A DNA stretch of 38,831 bases, filler included, from a bacterium (GTDB lineage Bacteria > RUG730), in the NCBI GenBank assembly GCA_031551405.1. It is 4 parts of 4 records of this genome, joined end to end, with 100 filler letters (N's around TTAATTAATTAA, not from the genome) between each part and the next. Parts side by side here need not be neighbours in the genome. Positions count along the whole stretch, not along the records: positions 1 to 3,875 come from JAVBNQ010000004.1; 3 more parts are not named here. One strand, 5' to 3'. Shown one piece after another: positions 3,087-36,582 of this stretch (position 1 is its first letter; each line of letters begins with the position of its first letter). The position numbers and the translations under genes are program-made. The notes beneath the pieces were generated by a model. It ran no database searches, was not told the origin of the DNA, and saw only the letters and a program-made list of their open reading frames with translations.

Positions 3087-3435
3087 AATCCTTCTCCATT
3101 ATCAATTAATTACACTTTTTTTTTACTTTCAACGCTAGCACTCATATTTTTATTTAAAAACTTTTGCACACAGCGTTCTTTCTTCAAAGGAAAACCAGCT
3201 CAAACGCCATCGATTTAAAATTTCAGGAATTTATTTGCCTTTAAAAAACTTTTTTATTTTTCAGTCCTCACGATAAGATTTTCATTTTAAACAAATGTTT
3301 TTCTCAGTATATCTCAAAAAAAAACAAAATCCATCGTTTTTTGCTCAAAAATTCGTTTTTTCGTCTCAAGTCCACACGTTTTTAGGCTAGAAATATTGCA
3401 TGCGGCGTTCTTTTTTTCGAAAAACCAACTCCAAA

Positions 3436-3595
3436 GCCGTAGGTTTTTCGAGCTTTTCCTAGGCTTTTCCTCGCAAAACTCGCTTCACTCCGTTTCGCTC
3501 ATACAGTTGCGAGCAGGGTTTTCTTATTTAACCCCCGCCTAATTTTTTCGTTCCTTCCTAAAGTTTTTTTGGTCTACTTTTAGGAGCCTACAGAC
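3436..3595 (-). repeat. Module A, multi-branched structured element (copy 1)
   Basis: On - strand: GTCTGTAGG/CCTACGGC, TCCTAAAAG/CTTTAGGA, TAGGC/GCCTA, GGGGTT/AACCCT and CTCGCAA/TTGCGAG enclosing AACTGTATGAGC..GCGAGTTTT. Strand assigned by the core shared with module B. Confidence 0.8.
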
Positions 3596-3688
3596 GATAA
3601 ATTTTAAAAACCTTGTTTAAATTTTCTCTTTCTCGTGAGATTTTTTTGTCCTTTTTATGAGTTTTTCTTTTTTCTTCTATTTTTAAAT

Positions 3689-3869
3689 GTCTGCATAGTG
3701 AAGAGAAGATGGAAAAAATTGAGAAAATCGTTTGAAATTTCTAACTGTTTGAGCCCAATTTTTTGTGGCGAGTTTTAGAAATTTAGATTTTATAAAATTT
3801 TTTCCCTATCTCTGAGGTACAGCAGACTAGCCTTTTTTGTTTCTTTTTTGGGCAATGTCAAAAAAGAAA
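3689..3869 (+). repeat. Module B, long imperfect hairpin plus 3' hairpin (copy 1)
   Basis: GTCTGC(3689-3694)/GCAGAC(3822-3827), GGAAAAAATT/AATTTTTTCC and AAATTTCTAA/TTAGAAATTT. Core at 3743-3776. Terminal hairpin TTTCTTTTTTG-GGCAATGT-CAAAAAAGAAA (3840-3869). Confidence 0.88.
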
Positions 3870-3875
3870 ATAAAG

Positions 3876-3975
3876 NNNNNNNNNNNNNNNNNNNNNNNNN
3901 NNNNNNNNNNNNNNNNNNNTTAATTAATTAANNNNNNNNNNNNNNNNNNNNNNNNNNNNNNNNNNNNNNNNNNNN
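3876..3975. other. Assembly gap with artificial six-frame stop linker
   Basis: 44 N + TTAATTAATTAA + 44 N, identical to the other two gaps. Confidence 0.97.
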
Positions 3976-13702: not shown

Positions 13703-14766
13703 AAAAATTTTTCGCCACTTTAAAATTTATTTTAATTTCAATTGTTTTTTTAAATCTTCTCTGCTTTGCTTACTTTTTTTTGACATCTAAACCATTCCAA
13801 AAATTCCATTCTCAAAAAAACATACAAATTTTATTTTTGTCAACCGAAGCAAAAAACATTAAAACAATTTATCTTTTCGATTATTCATTCCAAAAACAAG
13901 AAATTTTCATTTTCCCGCTTAGTTCAAAAAACAAACTTCTAAATTATAAAAATTCGAGTTATCTGTTTTTGAGCGATATTTATAGAGGAATTTATTATCA
14001 AAACAAAAAAGATTTGGAAAAATCTACTATCGCTTTTATGCAAAAATTCAATGAAATATTTGACCAAAAAATCGAATATTTTATTCACTTTTCATCATCT
14101 GACATAGCAAATATCAACAAAAACTTCGAAATAAATTTATCGTATTCCGATCTAACTAAACCAAATTCCGATGACCTTGCAATTTACGCAAAATATAAAA
14201 ATTGGATGCTTTTTCTCGAGAACATTAACTATGAAAACATTCTAAAATCAAAATTTTTGCGTAAATATTTTTTCAAACAATTTCATAAAAATATTGATTT
14301 AGATCAATATTTTATTACAGGAAATTTGACGAAAGCCGACTTTTTTTATCTGCTCACAAAATTTTATAAATTAAAAACTCAAAACATAAATTTTGTGGGG
14401 GTTCCGGATGTTTTAAATGACGGAGATAGGTCGTTCATAAACGAGTTTTTATCGGTTGAAAAAAATGATGGAAACGAAAAGGTGATCGTCGAAGTTTTGA
14501 ATGGATCCGGCAGAGGAGGGAAGGCTGTTGAAATCGCTCGATTTTTACGAAGCGAAAACATAGACGTGCAGCTTTGGGGGAATTATCCGAACATTGTCGA
14601 GGAAACAATCGTGATTGACAGGAAAGGCTACCTCGATAATGCAAAAAAAGTTCACGAAATTTTAAAAACCGGTGTTTTCTTATCGAGGAAAGAAAAAAAT
14701 TCTTTTTACGATTTAACGATTATTTTAGGAGAAAATAAAAATTTTGTCGTGCGGACAGAAAAATAA
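13699..14766 (+). CDS. Membrane-anchored protein with LytR_C domain (divergent LCP-like)
   Basis: N-terminal TM. C-terminal VEVLNGSGRGGKA..LR..WGN..DLTIILG is the LytR_C signature. Confidence 0.75.
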   Translation: MKKFFATLKFILISIVFLNLLCFAYFFLTSKPFQKFHSQKNIQILFLSTEAKNIKTIYLFDYSFQKQEIFIFPLSSKNKLLNYKNSSYLFLSDIYRGIYYQNKKDLEKSTIAFMQKFNEIFDQKIEYFIHFSSSDIANINKNFEINLSYSDLTKPNSDDLAIYAKYKNWMLFLENINYENILKSKFLRKYFFKQFHKNIDLDQYFITGNLTKADFFYLLTKFYKLKTQNINFVGVPDVLNDGDRSFINEFLSVEKNDGNEKVIVEVLNGSGRGGKAVEIARFLRSENIDVQLWGNYPNIVEETIVIDRKGYLDNAKKVHEILKTGVFLSRKEKNSFYDLTIILGENKNFVVRTEK

Positions 14767-14783
14767 AAAAGATTTATCGAAGT

Positions 14784-15360
14784 AAAAAACGAGAGAATTT
14801 GGTTTTCTAAAACTTTTCAATTTCCGTCTTTTTTCTCTTTTCTTCTTAATTTATATGTCTGCCTAGCGAAGAGAAGATGGAAAAAATTGAAAAAATCGTT
14901 AAAAATTTCTAACTGTTTGAGCCCTCACTTGTGAGGGCGAGTTTTAGAAATTTAGATTTTTTGAAAATTTTTTACCTATCTCTGAGGTCGAGCAGACTAG
15001 CGTTTTTTGTTTCTTTTTTGAGCAATGTCAAAAAAGAAAGATAAAAGAACGCCGCGCTCGTAAAAAATGAAAATCCTCATCTTTGGACAGAAAAAGCAAA
15101 AAGTTTTGTTGAAGCAAAAAAACGAAGGGATTTTTGTTTTTAGTTTTGCGATTGAAAAAAAGAAAAAAAACTTTTTAATTTCCGTTTAAATCCTAAAGAC
15201 AGTCATCTTGTTTTTACCAATAGTTTATCAAAAATTTCGAAAAGGGCATTTAAAGAAATTACACAATTTTTAGAGACTAAAAACAAAAAACTAAAAAAAA
15301 ATCTCGCGAGAATAAAAAGAGTTTAATTGCCATCCCGGTAACGACCTCGTCTACAAAGCT
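14784..15360. repeat. Composite intergenic repeat, locus 2 (full module B 14857-15039 plus inverted fragments of C, D, F)
   Basis: Module B is a near-copy of 3689-3869 with a different apical hairpin. Located between convergent genes. Confidence 0.92.
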
Positions 15361-19426: not shown

Positions 19427-20749
19427 TTAATCGCTATCGTCCAAAGCCCATACGATTTTTACTGGCGAGCCTTCGAATCTATATTTGTCACGCAAATTAT
19501 TCTCGAGATATCTCGAATACGCCATTGGAATTTCGCCATTTCTGCTCAATTTTACGTAAAAAACAGGCGGCGAAGTATTCACTTGCTTTCCACCCAAAAT
19601 CACGACCGGATGTTTATGTTTGCCTCGAGGCGGATATTTTTTCGCATAACAATCTCTAAAAAGCTCAGAAACCTCAATATCAGGAACTCGCTTCGTGTAT
19701 TCCTTGTAAACTCTCTCGATTGTTTCAAAAATTTTCTCAACTCGCAAATTCTCTTTCGCTGATACAAACATGGCTGGCGCAAAAAGTAAAAATGGAAACG
19801 ATTTTTTCCGTTCGTTTAAAAATTTTTTTACATAATCTTCGCGGTCTTCGATCACATCCCATTTATTGACGAGAATTATGCAGGCTTTATTGTATTCTTT
19901 GATCAGCCCGGCAATCCTCAGGTCTTGATGATTTACAAAAGTTTTAGCGTCGAGCAAAAGTAAAACCACGTCACTTCGTTTAATCGCTTCCTCTGTAGCA
20001 CGAACAGAAATTATGTCAAATTCTAGCCTTTTCGGGCCTTTTTTTATCCCGGCTGTATCGATGATCGTGTATTTTCTGTTGTTTTTTTTAATTATTGAGT
20101 CAATCGCGTCTCGAGTCGTACCCGGTACGTCGCTCACAAGAACTTTGGTTTCTCCGAAAATCGTATTGAAAAGCGTAGATTTTCCGACGTTCGGCTTACC
20201 AACTATCGAAATTTTTATGTCGCTTTGAATATCCATTTTTTCAAGTTTAACTTCCGGGATATCTTTGATTATCTCGTCAAGCAAATCGATAATTCCAAGG
20301 TTGTGAAGAGCTGAAGTTTTTAAAATCGTACCAACGCCAAGCTCGTAAAAATCCGCAACCAATTTTTCCCTTTCTTTCAAGTCGATTTTATTTATAGCCA
20401 GGACAATTTTTTTGTTTTTTGATTTGGTCCTGATCCAACGCAAAATGTCCTTGTCAATCGGATTAATGCCCTCTTTCCCATCGACAACTATCAAAATCAT
20501 GTCCGATTCTTCAATACCGAGTCCAACATTTTTTACAATCCAATTTTTCTCAAAACTTCCGTCTTCTTTTTCGACTCCGCCAGTATCAATCAAACAAAAA
20601 GTTTTGTTTTTCCACTCACAAAACCCGTAATTCCTATCTCGAGTCAAATGTGGAATATTTGAAACCAAAGCTTTCTTGTATTTAACGAGCCTGTTAAACA
20701 AACTCGATTTCCCGACATTCACTCTTCCGACGATACAAACTTTATACAT
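19427..20749 (-). CDS. der: Ribosome biogenesis GTPase Der
   Basis: Two G domains (GRVNVGKS/DTGG/NKID and GKPNVGKS/DTAG/NKWD) plus a KH-like C-terminus. Confidence 0.97.
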   Translation of the reverse strand: MYKVCIVGRVNVGKSSLFNRLVKYKKALVSNIPHLTRDRNYGFCEWKNKTFCLIDTGGVEKEDGSFEKNWIVKNVGLGIEESDMILIVVDGKEGINPIDKDILRWIRTKSKNKKIVLAINKIDLKEREKLVADFYELGVGTILKTSALHNLGIIDLLDEIIKDIPEVKLEKMDIQSDIKISIVGKPNVGKSTLFNTIFGETKVLVSDVPGTTRDAIDSIIKKNNRKYTIIDTAGIKKGPKRLEFDIISVRATEEAIKRSDVVLLLLDAKTFVNHQDLRIAGLIKEYNKACIILVNKWDVIEDREDYVKKFLNERKKSFPFLLFAPAMFVSAKENLRVEKIFETIERVYKEYTKRVPDIEVSELFRDCYAKKYPPRGKHKHPVVILGGKQVNTSPPVFYVKLSRNGEIPMAYSRYLENNLRDKYRFEGSPVKIVWALDDSD

Positions 20750-22609: not shown

Positions 22610-23683
22610 TTAAATATTTAAATCCAATTTCAAATATTTTTGCAAATAATCGTTCAAAATTTCATTCAACTCGTGTTTTTCAAAAGTTTTCACGATTTTT
22701 CCGTGCTCAAAAACCGAAATTTTATTGCCTGTTCCACAAAATCCAAAATCTGCTTCTTTTGCCTCGCCCGGACCGTTAACAACGCAGCCCATTATCGCAA
22801 TCTTTATCGGCAAACTTCCTATTTCAGACCAATTCAAGCTCCAAATTAATTTTTCAATCTTTTTCACGAGTGGTATCACACCCAAACTCGTTCGCGCGCA
22901 CGTCGGACAAGAAATGATATCCGGGTATTTTTGTCGCAAACCGAGAGCCTGGAGAATTTTGTAACCTGCGAAAACTTCCCAAATCGGATCGTCAGTCAAA
23001 GAAACTCGCAAAGTATCGCCGATTCCGTGCTCGAGTAAAAGCGCGAGTCCGACGCTAGACTTGATTGCGCCTAAGAAAAGCGACCCGGATTCCGTGATTC
23101 CCAAATGCAGCGGATAATCGGATTTCTGTCTGAATTTTTCGTAAGCTGAAAATGAGGTTTTGACATCGCTAGATTTTAACGAAATCACCAAATTTTCGAA
23201 ACCGTTTTCTTCAAAATAATCGATATACTCCAAAGCTTTTTCAACCATAAATTCAGCTTTATCGCCCGAATGCTTCGCGTTCAAAGAACCAGAGTTTACC
23301 CCGACTCGGATCGCGACATTTTTTTTGTTCGCTATCTCTATGATTTTCGCCAAATGTTCTTTTCGCAAATTTCCAGGATTAATACGAATTTTGTCAGCGC
23401 CGTTTTCCATCGCCAAAATCGCCAGTTTGTAATCAAAATGTATATCGGCAACTATCGGAATTTTGATTTGTTTTTTGATTTCTTTGAAAGCGAGGCAAGA
23501 AGCTTCGTCGGGAGCGCTTGCACGAATCATTTCGCAGCCTGCTCGCGTCAATTGTTTTATTTGATTTACGGTTTTTGTAATATTGGTCGTCGAAGTATTC
23601 GTCATCGATTGAACGACGATCTGATTATTTCCGCCAATCAAAACTTTCCCGACTTTGACAACTCGCGTTTTTTTAAATTTCAT
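22610..23683 (-). CDS. ispG: 4-hydroxy-3-methylbut-2-en-1-yl diphosphate synthase
   Basis: VQSMTNT, VADIHFD, RINPGN, HLGITE, GDTLRVSL, SCPTCAR, GCVVNGPGE. Confidence 0.98.
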   Translation of the reverse strand: MKFKKTRVVKVGKVLIGGNNQIVVQSMTNTSTTNITKTVNQIKQLTRAGCEMIRASAPDEASCLAFKEIKKQIKIPIVADIHFDYKLAILAMENGADKIRINPGNLRKEHLAKIIEIANKKNVAIRVGVNSGSLNAKHSGDKAEFMVEKALEYIDYFEENGFENLVISLKSSDVKTSFSAYEKFRQKSDYPLHLGITESGSLFLGAIKSSVGLALLLEHGIGDTLRVSLTDDPIWEVFAGYKILQALGLRQKYPDIISCPTCARTSLGVIPLVKKIEKLIWSLNWSEIGSLPIKIAIMGCVVNGPGEAKEADFGFCGTGNKISVFEHGKIVKTFEKHELNEILNDYLQKYLKLDLNI

Positions 23684-24797
23684 TCGTTTTCTCGTTAGTT
23701 AAATTAATTCTGACGATTTCTGATTTACTCAAAAACCGCATCCTCGGACCCCAAAATCTTGTTCCAGATGATAAATAAAGGTTCGAATTTCCTGATTTAT
23801 AGAGCCCAAATACGTATTTGAAAAAAATTTTTTCTATCAAGTCAATCGGCGGAATTTGCCCGGCGTGAGTATGCCCGGATAATTGCAAATCCACGAAAAG
23901 TTTTGCTGCTTCGTCGAAAACTTCAGGTCTGTGGCTAAGCAAAATTTTTGGCAAACTTGGATTCGTTTGACTAAAAAGCTCAGGCAAATTCGCAAGTTTA
24001 TAGCTAAAACTCAGGGCAGCCTTGTCATTTATTCCGATTAAATTCACCAAATTTTGTAACTCAAAAACCTCGTTTTCCAAAACTTTTATGTTCGCGCCTC
24101 GACAAAAATTTTTGAAATTGTCCAGCCCGGGATAATATTCATGATTTCCCGTCGTAGCAAAAACGCCGTATTTCGCTTTCAGGTCCCTAAAAAGCGCTTC
24201 ATAATGTGAGACATCTTTATTAGTATCCAAAACATCGCCAGTTATAAGGATAATGTCTGGAATGAATTCATTCGTTTTTTTTATGATATATTCGATTTCT
24301 TTTGTTCTCGTTCTTCCGTCGATGTGCAAATCTGTTAAATGAATTATTTTTAAACTTTGCGTTTTAAGACTCGAGATGTTGATTTTTAGATCAACCAAAC
24401 TCGGTTTTTGCAAAGCGTTCAAGCTCGAGTAAATTGCGCAAAGCATCGCCAAAACAAACACAAATCGATCTGCAAACAATAAAAAAGTTTTAGTTTTTTG
24501 TAGGAAAAAATATAACGGAAAACTTACGATATTCGCTATTAAAAAAAACGTGAAAACAATCGACAAAAATCCAAACCAATACATCGAAAAATTCATAAAA
24601 ATCGCTAAACTTTGCGATTCAAATTTCCGAGTTAAAATAAGACTTAAAAAGCCTAAAACGAAAATCAACAAAAAAATTATCATTAAAAATACAAAATTTC
24701 TCTCAGACATTTGAAAACAAAATTTTAGATTAAAAAGCACTAAAAAATTTATGAAAAGCATTATCAAAATGCTAAAAATCATAAAAAATGACATCAA
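23673..24797 (-). CDS. Membrane-bound metallophosphoesterase (YkuE/YaeI-like)
   Basis: Four N-terminal TMs, DLH, GD, GNHE, LSH, GHTH. Confidence 0.9.
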   Translation of the reverse strand: MMSFFMIFSILIMLFINFLVLFNLKFCFQMSERNFVFLMIIFLLIFVLGFLSLILTRKFESQSLAIFMNFSMYWFGFLSIVFTFFLIANIVSFPLYFFLQKTKTFLLFADRFVFVLAMLCAIYSSLNALQKPSLVDLKINISSLKTQSLKIIHLTDLHIDGRTRTKEIEYIIKKTNEFIPDIILITGDVLDTNKDVSHYEALFRDLKAKYGVFATTGNHEYYPGLDNFKNFCRGANIKVLENEVFELQNLVNLIGINDKAALSFSYKLANLPELFSQTNPSLPKILLSHRPEVFDEAAKLFVDLQLSGHTHAGQIPPIDLIEKIFFKYVFGLYKSGNSNLYLSSGTRFWGPRMRFLSKSEIVRINLTNEKTNEI

Positions 24798-24806
24798 ATT
24801 TTCCTC

Positions 24807-25367
24807 CTACAACAAAGTTTTTATTGCAACAAAAATTAACGCTAACCCGCCTAAAATTTCAGCTTTTTTGCCAAAATATTTCCCAAATCCAGTCCCAAAA
24901 AATGCACCAAAAAAACTAAAGACAAAAGTTGTTATCCCGACGATAGAAATACTAAATAAAAAATTTTGAGTAAGATTTTTCAAAATTAAGCCGGCGAAAA
25001 AAGCGTCAATGCTAGTCGCAAATCCTAGCAGAAGAAAATCAAGCGAATTAATGGCTTTCCCGTTTTTTTTATCGTCTATTTTTAGACCGAAATCAAAGCC
25101 GATATCAAATGTTTCGAGTATCATTTTGAGCCCGATCAAACTTAAAATTCCAAATGGTAGGTAATTTTTCAAGACGGAAAATTTTGCAAAAAAACTCGAA
25201 AAATAAACACCTAAAAGCGGCATGAAAAACTGAAATAATCCAAAAGTAAGCGCGCATTTAAAAGGCAAAATATATTTTTTTAGATTCGTCTGTTTTAGCG
25301 ATAACGAAATCGAAACTGCAAATGCGTCTATCGAGAGACTTATAGCTATAATCAAAACAGTCAGCAT
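24807..25367 (-). CDS. mntP: Manganese efflux pump MntP
   Basis: Duplicated SIDAF motifs, FGLFQFFMP, AEILGG. Start moved to the ATG at 25367. Confidence 0.9.
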   Translation of the reverse strand: MLTVLIIAISLSIDAFAVSISLSLKQTNLKKYILPFKCALTFGLFQFFMPLLGVYFSSFFAKFSVLKNYLPFGILSLIGLKMILETFDIGFDFGLKIDDKKNGKAINSLDFLLLGFATSIDAFFAGLILKNLTQNFLFSISIVGITTFVFSFFGAFFGTGFGKYFGKKAEILGGLALIFVAIKTLL

Positions 25368-29990: not shown

Positions 29991-30303
29991 AAACAAAATC
30001 TCTCGTTTTTGCCCAAAAATTTGTTTTTCCGTTTCAAGTCCACGCGTTTTTAGCTTGAAAATTTCACAAAAATACAAAAAAATGTTTACGTTTTTTGCTT
30101 TTACAAAACTTTTTTATTTTTCAGTCCTNNNNNNNNNNNNNNNNNNNNNNNNNNNNNNNNNNNNNNNNNNNNTTAATTAATTAANNNNNNNNNNNNNNNN
30201 NNNNNNNNNNNNNNNNNNNNNNNNNNNNAAATTTTTTCCCTATCTCTGAGGTACAGCAGACTAGCCTTTTTTGTTTCTTTTTTGGGCAATGTCAAAAAAG
30301 AAA
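29991..30303. repeat. Composite intergenic repeat, locus 3 (C, E, gap, 3' half of B)
   Basis: 29991-30062 resembles 3321-3395. 30105-30128 is identical to 3245-3268. 30229-30303 matches the 3' half of module B copy 1. Confidence 0.92.
30129..30228. other. Assembly gap with artificial six-frame stop linker
   Basis: N44-TTAATTAATTAA-N44. Confidence 0.97.
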
Positions 30304-33633: not shown

Positions 33634-35829
33634 TCATGCAAGAGACAATTTCGCGTATTTTACGAGCAATCTTTTTTCTTGCCCACTATAAAATTTGATG
33701 TAAACTGTTTCCTTGTCTCCGTCTCCATAAAAATCTTTGATCGTGCCAATCCCAAAATTAGGATGCGAAACCCTGTCACCTTTTTTAAACGAATTTGCCT
33801 GCCTCGAAAATCCGTCGTTTGTTTCAACTGTTGTTTTGTTTACAAAATCGTCAAAACGCGCATATGGATTTATCTCGATAGTTTCGTCGTCTACAAACTC
33901 ATCTAACAATCCGGATTCTCGCAAAAATCTCGATGGTAAATGCCATTTTGTCATCCCGTAAATATTTCGCTGGCTGGCTGAAAAACAGTATAATTTTTTC
34001 ATCGCCCGAGTCATCCCAACAAAACAAAGTCGCCTTTCTTCCTCGAGTTCGTCTTTATTGTAATCAACTTTTTGATTTGGGAAAAGGCCTTCTTCCATTC
34101 CCGTCAAAAAAACAACCGGAAATTCCAATCCTTTTGCGAGATGAATCGTCATTAATGTAACTTTTGGCGTATCAAGATTCAATTTATCGACATCACTTAC
34201 TAGAGCCGTGTGCTGCAAAAATCCCTCGAGAGTAATGTCGCCGTATCTTTTTTGATAATCGTCGGCAGCCGAAACTAGTTCCATCACGTTTTCTATTCGA
34301 GAATCTCGATATATCGTCGTGTCATCGTACAAACTCTGCATATAACCGTTTTTTTCCAAAACTAAATTTATGATTTCTTTGACTGAAAGCGTGTTAATAT
34401 TCGACATAATTTCCGTCATAAAAGCATAAAATTTGTAAACACTCGAACTAATTCGTTTTGATACCACATTTTCTGCGTAAAATCCGTTGCAAATGTTCGT
34501 CAAAATATCAAAAAACGAGTCATTTCCCTCTCTCAAACTTTCGATCAAATCAATCGTCGTATCTCCAATTCCTCTCGCCGGAACGTTTATAATTCGCTTT
34601 AAATTTATTGTGTCATTCGGGTTGATGAGGACTTTGAGATAAGCCAAAACGTCTTTGACTTCTTTTCTGTCATAAAATTTTGTACTTCCAACTAAAATGT
34701 ACGGAATTCCGTATTTTCTAAAAATTTCTTCAAAAACACGCGACTGAGCGTTCGTCCTGTAAAAAATCGCGATATCATTCAGCGAAAACCCTTGATTTAT
34801 GAGTTCTTCAATTTCTCGAGCGATTTCCTCAGCTTCAGCATTCTCATTTAAAACCTGACGATATTTAACGCTTTCTCCCGATTCATTTTCCGTCCAGATA
34901 GTCTTGTTTTTTCGAGTTTTATTGTTTTTGACGAGTCTATCTGCTGTTTCCAAAATATTTTTCGTCGACCGATAATTTTGCTCAAGCTTTATTATTTTCG
35001 TTTTCTCGTAATCCTTCTCAAAATTCAGAATATTTTGGATGTCAGCGCCTCGCCAAGAATAAATCGATTGATCGTCGTCTCCAACCACGCAAATATTTTT
35101 GTATTTCCCGGCCAGGAGTTTGATCATCAAATATTGAGAATAATTTGTATCCTGAAACTCGTCTATCATAATATATTTAAAGCGTTCCTGGTATTTTTGC
35201 AAAATATCAGGACGAGTTTGCAACATCTCAACAGTCTTAAATTGCAAATCCCCAAAATCCAAGTTTTGACTATTCTCCAAAATTTTTTGATAAAGCTCAT
35301 AAACATCAGCCACCAACTTGTAAAACATATCTTGACGACCTGCAGCCGTATTTTTGAACTCGTCGACCGAAATCATATCGTCTTTCGCGCGTCCGATTAT
35401 TGAGGAAACAATATTTGGGACGAATCTCTTCTCATCTAAATTGAGTTGCATCAGACACTGCTTGATAATATTTCGCTGGTCTTGAACGTCGCAAATGCTG
35501 AAATTTTTGTTCAGCCCGATATTTTCCGCCTCATTTCTCAAAAACTGCGCGCACATCGAATGAAACGTCGAAATCAAAACGCCGCTATTCGTGAGTCCGG
35601 AATATTTAACGATTCGTTCCTTCATCTCGCGAGCAGCTTTGTTCGTGAAAGTAACGGCCAAAATATTTTCAGGCGAAACTCCTCTCGATAACAAATACGC
35701 GATTCTGTAAATTATAACGCGAGTTTTACCGGAGCCGGCTCCTGACAAAACCAAAACTGGCCCTTCCGTCGTCAAAACCGCTTTTTCTTGTTCTTCATTT
35801 AACAGATTTTTTAAGTCTAAATTTGACAT
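33634..35829 (-). CDS. pcrA: ATP-dependent DNA helicase PcrA/UvrD
   Basis: GAGSGKT, DEFQDTN, GDDDQSIYSWRGA, QNYRS, HLAKGLEF, EERRL. C-terminal Tudor-like GDRVSHPNFG. Confidence 0.97.
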   Translation of the reverse strand: MSNLDLKNLLNEEQEKAVLTTEGPVLVLSGAGSGKTRVIIYRIAYLLSRGVSPENILAVTFTNKAAREMKERIVKYSGLTNSGVLISTFHSMCAQFLRNEAENIGLNKNFSICDVQDQRNIIKQCLMQLNLDEKRFVPNIVSSIIGRAKDDMISVDEFKNTAAGRQDMFYKLVADVYELYQKILENSQNLDFGDLQFKTVEMLQTRPDILQKYQERFKYIMIDEFQDTNYSQYLMIKLLAGKYKNICVVGDDDQSIYSWRGADIQNILNFEKDYEKTKIIKLEQNYRSTKNILETADRLVKNNKTRKNKTIWTENESGESVKYRQVLNENAEAEEIAREIEELINQGFSLNDIAIFYRTNAQSRVFEEIFRKYGIPYILVGSTKFYDRKEVKDVLAYLKVLINPNDTINLKRIINVPARGIGDTTIDLIESLREGNDSFFDILTNICNGFYAENVVSKRISSSVYKFYAFMTEIMSNINTLSVKEIINLVLEKNGYMQSLYDDTTIYRDSRIENVMELVSAADDYQKRYGDITLEGFLQHTALVSDVDKLNLDTPKVTLMTIHLAKGLEFPVVFLTGMEEGLFPNQKVDYNKDELEEERRLCFVGMTRAMKKLYCFSASQRNIYGMTKWHLPSRFLRESGLLDEFVDDETIEINPYARFDDFVNKTTVETNDGFSRQANSFKKGDRVSHPNFGIGTIKDFYGDGDKETVYIKFYSGQEKRLLVKYAKLSLA

Positions 35830-36057
35830 TTTCTACTCTATAAATTTTATTTTGCTAAATTTGTGTATTATATAAAAATTAAATTTTTATTTAAAGATTT
35901 TTTTGAAGCTTTCAAGACGTTGTTTTTTGCTGTATGTATGTACCACATAGATAAAATTGAGAACTTTAGTAACAAAAATACATTAAATTGGAGCTAAGCT
36001 TCAATCTTTTATTTTAAATCGATTTAAATATATTTTTGTCTTTTGCTTGAAAACGTT

Positions 36058-36482
36058 GTTTTTTTGTCTCAAGTCCACACGTCAGAATTTTTATTTTTCT
36101 CGTGCGCGGCATTATTTTTCTCGAAAAACCAACTTAAAAGCCGTAGGTTTTTTGAGCTTTTCCTAGGCTTTTCCTCGCAAAACTCGCTCCACTCCGTTTC
36201 GCTCATACAGTTGCGAGCAAGGTTTTCTTATTTAACCCCCGCCTAATTTTTTTGTTCCTTCCTAAAGTTTTTTTGGTCTACTTTTAGGAGCCTACAGACG
36301 ATAAATTTTTAAAACCTTGTTTAAATTTTCTCTTTCTCGTGAGATTTTTTTGTCCTTTTTCTAGGTTTTTATTTCTTTATTCTGTTTTTTGTCTTTTTTA
36401 AAATGTCTGCATATCGAAGAGAAGATGGAAAAAATTGATAAAATCGTTTAAAATTTCTAACTGTTTGAGCCCAATTTTTTGT
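36058..36482. repeat. Composite intergenic repeat, locus 4 (C end, D, A 36140-36299, F, 5' half of B 36405-36482)
   Basis: Collinear and highly similar to 3357-3766. Truncated by the gap inside the apical loop of B. Confidence 0.95.
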
Positions 36483-36582
36483 NNNNNNNNNNNNNNNNNN
36501 NNNNNNNNNNNNNNNNNNNNNNNNNNTTAATTAATTAANNNNNNNNNNNNNNNNNNNNNNNNNNNNNNNNNNNNNNNNNNNN
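36483..36582. other. Assembly gap with artificial six-frame stop linker
   Basis: N44-TTAATTAATTAA-N44. Confidence 0.97.

Follow-up and report, generated by a model that had tools for sequence, protein, structure and literature searches.

The stretch analysed here (the window, 38,831 nucleotides with its linkers), taken from the draft bacterial genome GCA_031551405.1 (GTDB lineage RUG730), carries several copies of an intergenic repeat in two forms, modules A and B, which are two subtypes of one non-autonomous structured repeat family. Each unit is a long imperfect hairpin of approximately 130-240 nt. Near its tip lies an unchanging asymmetric internal loop, with CUGUYUGA on the 5' side facing GAGUU on the 3' side, which has an invariant A-U pair as its closing pair and is set between two helices, P1 and P2, whose sequence is free to change provided that pairing is kept. 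Often a tract rich in T, accompanied by one or two minor hairpins, is found 60-85 nt after this core and is here called the tail. Both modules are recognised by one and the same covariance model (46.5-59.9 bits, E 2e-10 to 4e-14) and share a foot, the core and a terminal 12-mer, which bears out the proposal of a preliminary description of this DNA that A and B belong to one family.

Modules A and B in the window

Module A occupies 3436-3596 on the minus strand as a branched long hairpin with the foot CUGUAGG/CCUACGG. Its centre (3470-3513, minus; 46.6 bits) consists of P1, CTCGCAA/TTGCGAG, and the invariant loop CTGTATGA / GAGTT, and within the same interval is an apex hairpin with GA mismatches (G-A/A-A) and a GGA triloop. 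Module B lies at 3689-3827 on the plus strand, a long imperfect hairpin of approximately 140 nt running from GTCTGC to GCAGAC, whose centre (3735-3784; 53.7 bits) comprises P1, AAATTTCTAA/TTAGAAATTT, the invariant loop CTGTTTGA / GAGTT and the P2 hairpin. Its tail (3830-3875, plus), with a T tract and a second hairpin (3840-3851 with 3858-3869), is truncated at the contig end. The spacer between the two heads (3597-3688) showed no promoter-like site. The strings quoted for the modules in the preliminary description are exact, namely CTCGC-AACTGTATGAGC-13 nt-GCGAGTTTT-GCGAG for module A (3470-3513, minus) and TTTCT-AACTGTTTGAGC-13 nt-GCGAGTTTT-AGAAA for module B (3738-3781, plus), and GTCTG does stand at the 5' foot of both (3591-3595, minus; 3689-3693, plus).

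The fold of module B is well supported, with z-scores for RNA of -3.96 (copy 1) and -5.42 (copy 2) and for DNA of -5.51. In this fold the 8-nt CUGUUUGA opposite the 5-nt GAGUU forms the internal loop between a 10-bp P1 and the P2 hairpin, and P2 varies among the B copies yet still pairs (CCAATTTTTTGTGG vs CCTCACTTGTGAGG). As a single long hairpin, module A is unconvincing by nearest-neighbour energies (z -0.81 for RNA, -1.83 for DNA); its P1 helix is present in the DNA centroid structure.

Module A was said to occur at two loci and does so (3402-3673 and 36106-36377, 94% identity; the second on the minus strand with its core at 36179-36212, 46.5 bits). Module B was said to occur at four, and all four places are found on the plus strand, but it is complete at 14837-15044 only and the other three are partial. 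The copy at 3669-3874 has lost its final bases at the contig end, 30229-30308 holds the 3' part with hairpin 2 but not the terminal 12-mer at a contig start, and 36405-36482 holds the 5' half (repeat 36385-36482), cut inside P2 by a contig end. The pieces at 36106-36377 (minus) and 36405-36482 (plus) make up a second head-to-head doublet in the window. The complete copy, copy 2, is a solo unit between convergent genes, with its full hairpin at 14857-14997 (plus; core 14911-14945; z -5.42, 59.9 bits). In its tail (15000-15055, plus) a T tract and hairpin 2 (15010-15039) are followed by the terminal 12-mer AAAGAACGCCGC (15044-15055), which, as previously described, also follows module A (3402-3413, minus) and there, as the inverted copy of 15044-15055, marks the outer end of the doublet next to module A. 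A terminator-like site (15059-15047 plus a T run, minus) points inward from this tail.

The window is a scaffold of four draft contigs joined by N44-TTAATTAATTAA-N44 linkers at 3876-3975, 30129-30228 and 36483-36582. Since TTAATTAATTAA has stops in all six frames and the linkers are artificial and non-biological, gene order across them is no evidence of adjacency. All three contig breaks are located in or beside module A/B repeats, and this accounts for module B being complete only at 14837-15055 and means that the genome very likely holds extra copies. One contig (30229-36482) starts with a 3' part and ends with a 5' half of module B in the same orientation, between which approximately 28 nt would be missing; these end pieces reflect an assembly break in the repeat and are no evidence of a circle.

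Among the genes around these repeats are mutL, rlmD, nadE, ispG, der, recN, ruvB, glyQS, pcrA, plsY, gpsA and hup. The earlier statement that no transposase, nuclease or reverse transcriptase lies near is confirmed for the window, the 34 of 34 open reading frames (ORFs) examined being housekeeping or ordinary genes. Small ORFs within module B were considered as coding sequence and rejected; since these short frames differ between copies, the element is non-coding.

The repeats stand out clearly from the background of the window, which has a G+C content of approximately 33% and is rich in T and A runs. With up to one mismatch, the 12-nt core AACTGTWTGAGC has five matches in 38.8 kb (3497-3508, minus; 3743-3754, plus; 14911-14922, plus; 36201-36212, minus; 36459-36470, plus) against 0.31 expected, and none of 100 shuffles reaches five. 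The 9-nt partner GCGAGTTTT likewise has five window matches against 1.0 expected, one of which (35719-35727) falls inside the pcrA ORF and is a chance match with no element. The composition of the window with its T and A runs, as well as the copies at contig ends, might suggest that the likeness is due to chance, or that low complexity in an AT-rich genome or an error of assembly has produced it. This explanation is hardly credible given the shuffles, and the artificial linkers are separate from the repeats. The same core is also found with covarying helices in genomes of 26-71% G+C (among the matches listed), and taken together the shuffles, the covariation and the absence of any match in reversed-sequence controls rule it out.

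An invariant loop between covarying helices

A scan of one genome per species with the pattern AACTGTWTGAGC-N8-20-GCGAGTTT returned at least 113 loci (given L numbers below) from at least 91 assemblies as counted by accession prefix, and the suspicion voiced in the preliminary description that the motif may be widespread was thereby confirmed. Seven loci were dropped as coding or chance (L003, L009, L025, L053, L066, L078 and L100), which left at least 84 assemblies of about 10 phyla. In two of these, L003 and L078, the core pattern lies in a coding segment (...ELFERM...GEF...) that is apparently an aminoacyl-tRNA synthetase motif and is a source of false positives for pattern searches. The carriers among the matches listed include Gamma-, Beta- and 'Delta'-proteobacteria, Aliarcobacter, Bacteroidota, Fusobacteriota, Lachnospiraceae and other Clostridia, Peptococcaceae, Syntrophomonadaceae, Erysipelotrichales, Patescibacteria (Saccharibacteria, Gracilibacteria, Magasanikbacteria), Nitrospirae, Elusimicrobiota and Acidobacteriota. 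Leptotrichia and the cultured Butyrivibrio hungatei, Flavobacterium palustre, Lysobacter soli and species of Pelomonas are among them. The sequences flanking the core pair with each other in nearly all listed matches and show no likeness between lineages; module B and a copy in a metagenome-assembled genome (MAG) of Elusimicrobiota are 74-75% identical over 189-198 nt.

For the covariation analysis, the 108 listed matches with enough flank were reduced to 91 by removing near-duplicates and to 84 by the seven exclusions, and with four window copies they gave an alignment of 88 sequences. Each of the seven P1 pairs next to the core is paired in 69-79 of the 88 sequences and occurs in all four Watson-Crick types. 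The covariation score was 0.448, compared with 0.164 +/- 0.008 for shuffled alignments (0 of 500 reaching the observed value), and it fell to 0.15-0.18 when the 3' partners were slid by 1-3 columns. The covariation check called for at the outset thus supports a structured single strand, and the claim that the helix differs yet still pairs is true in the window and far more strongly so in the 84 loci from other genomes.

The covariance model was built from this 88-sequence alignment, mostly of other genomes, and in the window it finds four full copies and a truncated fifth and nothing else. In loci L001-L100 it gave 103 matches among those listed, and eight model matches lay outside the search pattern. 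In all eight, CTGT[T/C]TGA and GAGTTT are kept, while the P2 closing pair changes jointly from GC/GC to CC/GG, GG/CC or GA/TC. The first A of AAC and the ninth T likewise vary in concert, to C-G, T-A or G-C. These joint changes imply that the truly fixed part is the loop and that the positions around it are normal base pairs. When up to 2+1 mismatches in the core were permitted in a strict structural scan, the result was 51 exact cores and one variant, with none in the reversed-sequence controls.

One identical unpaired loop of approximately 13 nt is found in at least 84 assemblies of about 10 phyla amid helices that have fully diverged. This pattern demands one of two things, a partner that is very widely shared or an intrinsic activity. 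With regard to an intrinsic activity, the loop could supply the core, or half of the core, for a small self-cleaving ribozyme borne on a repeated element. Small ribozymes typically combine unpaired bases that do not vary, set amid covarying helices, with a high copy number per genome and a broad distribution, and CUGUUUGA followed by a G-C-closed helix and GAG may resemble the hammerhead core. However, the hammerhead has three helices around its conserved core whereas two helices only flank the present loop, and the bases that differ from the hammerhead fall at positions which we presume to be essential, which counts against a ribozyme. Neither the hammerhead model nor that of any other ribozyme gave a match at E values up to 10, and none reached its gathering score in 18 loci. 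Since the apex loops also favour DNA over RNA (see below), a ribozyme is much less likely than the readings set out further on and appears very improbable.

The pairing of the first A with the ninth T bears on another reading, namely that the element is a recombination site which, like the attC sites of integrons, folds as a single strand and is acted on by a tyrosine recombinase. An attC site is a folded single strand with unpaired bases that is recognised by its structure and leaves no duplication on insertion, and the present element is likewise a hairpin in which unpaired bases define one active strand, with no target-site duplication seen. AAC stands at the head of the 5' core and GTT is present in the 3' core, as we presume to be true of the attC R boxes, which would count in favour of this reading. 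The register is nevertheless wrong, because according to the covariation the partner of the first A is the ninth T, and AAC does not pair with GTT. Furthermore, the loop sequence is invariant, whereas attC sites are conserved in structure rather than sequence; the copies are dispersed singly or as inverted pairs and not as same-orientation arrays with cassettes, and the window and the at least 113 loci yielded no integrase. An attC-like site is also much less likely, and we consider it very doubtful indeed.

The loop may have features in common with the kink turn (k-turn), loop E and hammerhead domain 2, in that the GA dinucleotides on the 5' and 3' sides of P2 could form tandem sheared pairs and AGCG opposite AGCG recurs along the stem, but the arrangement does not agree with a geometry in which G-A pairs come directly after a 3-nt bulge.

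Doublets, tails and named repeat families

Pairs at the same locus are found in the minus-then-plus order in nine cases (the window twice, L019, L038, L045, L064, L070, L074 and L088), whereas among the matches listed there are no plus-then-minus pairs and two tandem pairs. The doublets are approximately 480-560 bp in length and head to head, with tails outward, terminal inverted repeats and inverted arms of 74-180 nt that are 77-92% complementary. The complete units of Pelomonas (L031 6845-7404 and L111 2598-3139) measure 541-559 bp, have termini identical over 30 nt and are ordered as tail, hairpin (minus), spacer, hairpin (plus) and tail. The A(-)/B(+) pairs of the window have the same layout, modules A and B each being one arm of a single head-to-head doublet.

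In the window the doublet appears to end in a 12-nt terminal inverted repeat (3402-3413 vs 15044-15055). Since B copy 1 is cut at the contig end where its 12-mer would begin, we infer this repeat from two different copies. The preliminary description had noted neither obvious terminal inverted repeats nor target-site duplications; the first part of that statement probably has to be withdrawn in view of the 12-mer, and with regard to the second, no consistent target-site duplication was found in two complete units and 11 single termini, whose ends are uncertain by a few bases.

In many copies from several phyla, the tail consists of a T-rich tract and then a hairpin in which the 5' arm is made up of pyrimidines and the 3' arm of purines, and it often ends with a further G+C-rich hairpin. 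Read inward, this G+C-rich hairpin with the T tract scores in consensus scans as a predicted intrinsic terminator, at both ends of L031, in L080 and at 15059-15047 in the window; the likeness to intrinsic terminators concerns the tail module only. A triple helix with the T tract as Hoogsteen strand was also considered and rejected, the mirror repeat being better than the direct repeat in four of 24 tails, worse in 13 and equal in seven. The tail module also occurs without the core hairpin, in Paraburkholderia at 35-40 or more places per replicon, and a BLAST search of the PLSDB plasmids with two full units returned the tail module only, mainly from Burkholderia, Paraburkholderia, Ralstonia, Pasteurella and Aeromonas, where it is unannotated. 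It had no match in complete E. coli genomes. Since the tail is found without the core hairpin, the elements are mosaics. In L115, a Paraburkholderia caribensis chromid, two inverted tail modules surround an insertion (approximately 22957-24880) with an ORF end that, judged by eye, presumably resembles the C-terminus of an IS256-type transposase.

The element has no name that we could find. Rfam 15 gave no match in the whole window at the gathering threshold and, in 18 loci, five matches with none at the element; relaxed searches (E up to 1-10) of the window, L026, L031 and L007 produced far sub-threshold noise only. The best of these relaxed matches, Pseudomon-groES on the tail, was rejected as structurally inconsistent and scored 24.3 bits against a threshold of 50. 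Two Rfam matches in the listed loci are separate orphan hairpin motifs near copies of the element: Clostridiales-1 (129 bits; L038 5781-5949, minus), 1.2 kb from a doublet, and Acido-Lenti-1 (38.4 bits; L026 2408-2453, plus), 150 nt from a copy. A literature search by sequence and keyword found no paper naming the element, with the supplementary consensus tables of PMC3733652 and PMC6006769, as well as ISfinder, lying outside the comparison. Within this scope the element is apparently uncharacterised, as had been surmised.

The closest resemblance is to REP sequences and their compound forms, REPIN and BIME. In PMC3733652 and PMC6006769, REPs are described as many-copy intergenic hairpins, often present as inverted pairs in larger structures and located between convergent or co-oriented genes, with G-T pairs that give a strand preference; they are transposase-free, thought to be moved in trans, and mosaic with other short modules. 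The present family is like them in being many-copy intergenic hairpins, in the inverted pairs (with doublets as a common form, minus-then-plus in 9 vs 0 cases, as in REPINs), in gene contexts and strand preference, and in being transposase-free and mosaic. It differs in size, its units being 130-240 nt in length (and the hairpins around the core spanning 130-250 nt) compared with 20-40 nt for REPs, and in having no RAYT gene beside any copy examined. The conserved part is also different, being an internal loop near the tip that is identical across about 10 phyla, whereas REP families are lineage-specific. A further difference concerns the GT[AG]G tetranucleotide at the 5' foot of the REP hairpin (PMC6006769), as the present family has no such fixed foot. 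GTAG occurs in the 5' arm of 19 and the 3' arm of 21 of 97 listed loci, compared with approximately 15 expected, with no fixed offset, and the module A foot contains GTAG...CTAC while module B and most other families do not; a REP-type GTAG tag, not enriched in the arms, was therefore rejected.

The terminal inverted repeats at the doublet level (30-nt termini in L031 and L111, the 12-mer in the window) are a likeness to miniature inverted-repeat transposable elements. Other known repeats, such as ERIC/IRU, Correia, RUP and BOX, are intergenic, non-autonomous elements of 100-250 bp that can form long hairpins when transcribed, some having terminator or promoter activity, and each is found within one genus or family with its ends kept and its middle variable. 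The present family is the opposite, the middle being fixed across phyla and the arms lineage-specific. From attC sites it differs in its invariant loop and its register, and in the lack of arrays, cassettes or an integrase at the loci examined.

Strand, gene context and a possible mode of action

In 90 of 104 listed loci the strand with the core folds more stably than the complementary strand, and in 14 less stably, with a mean difference of -6.6 kcal/mol (Wilcoxon p = 4.5e-14). On the sense strand, AGCG is found in the two arms of 66 and 68 of 97 listed loci, compared with approximately 31 expected, while its complement CGCT (27 and 25) is unenriched. Since AGCG lies opposite AGCG in the hairpin, G-C pairs flanked by G-A mismatches would form on one strand only, with C-T mismatches on the other. 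Among 95 distinct apexes in the listed loci there are 35 triloops, at least 19 of them GNA, and 33 tetraloops, of which four are GNRA and one is UNCG. GNA triloops closed by C-G are a hallmark of stable DNA mini-hairpins, and the apexes thus give a hint of DNA.

We propose that the element is a non-autonomous REPIN/BIME-like repeat whose working form is a folded single strand, with DNA more probable than RNA, and whose invariant loop is recognised in trans, and we would put the probability of this reading at roughly 45%, short of an even chance. A protein encoded elsewhere would recognise and possibly cleave the loop and would copy or move the element, as the RAYT enzymes do with REP/REPIN sequences, while the terminator-like tails would let it sit harmlessly or usefully downstream of genes. 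The main rival, which we regard as somewhat less probable, is that the element is a structured RNA acting in cis within the neighbouring mRNAs, for example by stabilising them at their 3' ends or between cistrons, by serving as a site of processing or as part of a terminator. In that case the loop would bind a near-universal RNA-binding protein or nuclease, and its high copy number would merely follow from duplication or mobility.

The covarying helices would also suit such an RNA, the strand asymmetry includes G-U pairs, and the GA dinucleotides facing each other beside P2 could form the tandem sheared pairs that are a common protein-binding motif in RNA. On the other hand, GNA triloops abound among the apexes while GNRA and UNCG loops are scarce, no Rfam family matches, and no sigma-70-like promoter was predicted in the doublet spacers, which like that of the window are without promoter-like sites. 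The tails also present a difficulty for an RNA, since with terminator-like sites facing inward incoming transcripts would stop before the hairpin, so that flanking transcripts would end early and would carry the antisense strand of the hairpin.

The gene context has bearing on both readings. Flanking genes have their 3' end toward the element in 54 of 78 cases among the matches listed (p = 0.0009), and in the 19 listed loci with both flanks confirmed the genes are convergent in 10, tandem in nine and divergent in none. A gene 3'-end preference has been reported for REPs (PMC3733652) and also speaks for an RNA. In the tandem contexts, however, the element is co-oriented with the genes in four listed loci and opposite in five, which does not favour an RNA.

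Several observations weigh against a mobile single-stranded DNA. Upstream genes are co-oriented with the element by 24 to 12 in the listed loci, as an RNA would have it, and module A in the window lies upstream and not downstream of genes. In four gammaproteobacterial species the element is sense-oriented between a co-oriented redoxin-like gene and gcvP and would therefore be transcribed there; the orthologous copies of these species have compensatory changes in P2 and in a lower helix, which suggests long persistence under selection for structure and also fits an RNA. GNA triloops and G-A pairs occur in RNA too. If the element folded on the lagging-strand template, as IS200/IS605 elements do, the sense strand would be expected on the G-rich strand, and the weak trend found is the opposite, the sense strand being the C-rich one in 59 of 91 listed loci. 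The invariance of the core is partly built in: since the loci were selected by exact core it is overstated, and the unbiased sample consists of eight copies chosen by a model that rewards the core. Decayed cores are found in the minus-strand partners of the Pelomonas doublets. Finally, neither a partner protein nor an insertion polymorphism was found in the 8-kb blocks around the listed copies, and with no consistent target-site duplication either, mobility is something that we infer.

The neighbourhood was searched for mobility genes, as the preliminary description had advised. None of the 146 immediate-neighbour ORFs is a mobility gene, and the 78 of them with Pfam matches are all ordinary among the matches listed; no transposase, integrase, reverse transcriptase or HUH nuclease adjoins the element in the window and listed loci. 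An all-against-all BLAST of 3861 ORFs from the listed loci found no recurrent mobility family, but housekeeping clusters only (lepA in six loci, ABC transporters and response regulators). A tnpA-REP (Y1 HUH) gene, which in the REPtron arrangement stands singly with REP copies on its flanks, was likewise not seen in the 34 window ORFs, the 146 neighbour ORFs or the recurrent ORF clusters of the 8-kb blocks around copies. According to PMC6006769, Y1 HUH enzymes of subclasses 2.1 and 2.3 have no REPs in their vicinity, and they would be the first candidates for a partner. The lepA gene shares an 8-kb block with the element in L013, L029, L036, L041, L073 and L081, which belong to different phyla, and this may reflect the ease with which lepA clusters in BLAST.

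Recent amplification is indicated in one Syntrophomonadaceae MAG, where near-identical copies are found at contig ends (L044, L061) or within 200 nt of them (L085, L092). Perfect tandem repeats with 6-8-nt units in 3-5 copies occur within 160 nt of the core in L052, L061, L067, L085, L109 and L112, that is, in six of 106 loci among the matches listed, at approximately 3.5 times the density elsewhere in the loci. Since these are six of 106 listed loci only, microsatellites at the element borders were rejected as a family feature.

To our knowledge, REP, ERIC, Correia, BOX and other intergenic repeats are each confined to particular lineages, and most have no known enzyme behind their spread. 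The invariant loop described here offers a sharp handle for tracing its partner. It is conceivable, though in our view unlikely, that the loop is the handle of an undiscovered near-universal single-strand system, either a family of trans-acting enzymes that recognises this one hairpin loop from the candidate phyla radiation to Proteobacteria and copies the doublets, or a catalytic loop; if so, this would be the most widely shared mobile non-coding element in bacteria and a ready-made probe for the enzyme. In practice, the element breaks short-read assemblies, yields spurious ORFs in G+C-rich genomes and provides terminator-like sites at gene ends.

Two further repeats accompany the element in the window. 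Module C, a 42-nt repeat with 81-88% identity between copies (3338-3379, 30006-30047 and 36041-36082, with a weaker fourth match at 20543-20584), is placed between module A and either module D or a gene start. Module D (GGACAGAAAAA...AAAAAAG...GAAG...AAAAAA) is found at 3231-3288 (minus), 14732-14800 (plus), 15064-15140 (plus) and 30080-30128 (minus); it lies on both sides of the solo B copy 2 in direct orientation and also upstream of the GT2-mutL and ruvB operons.

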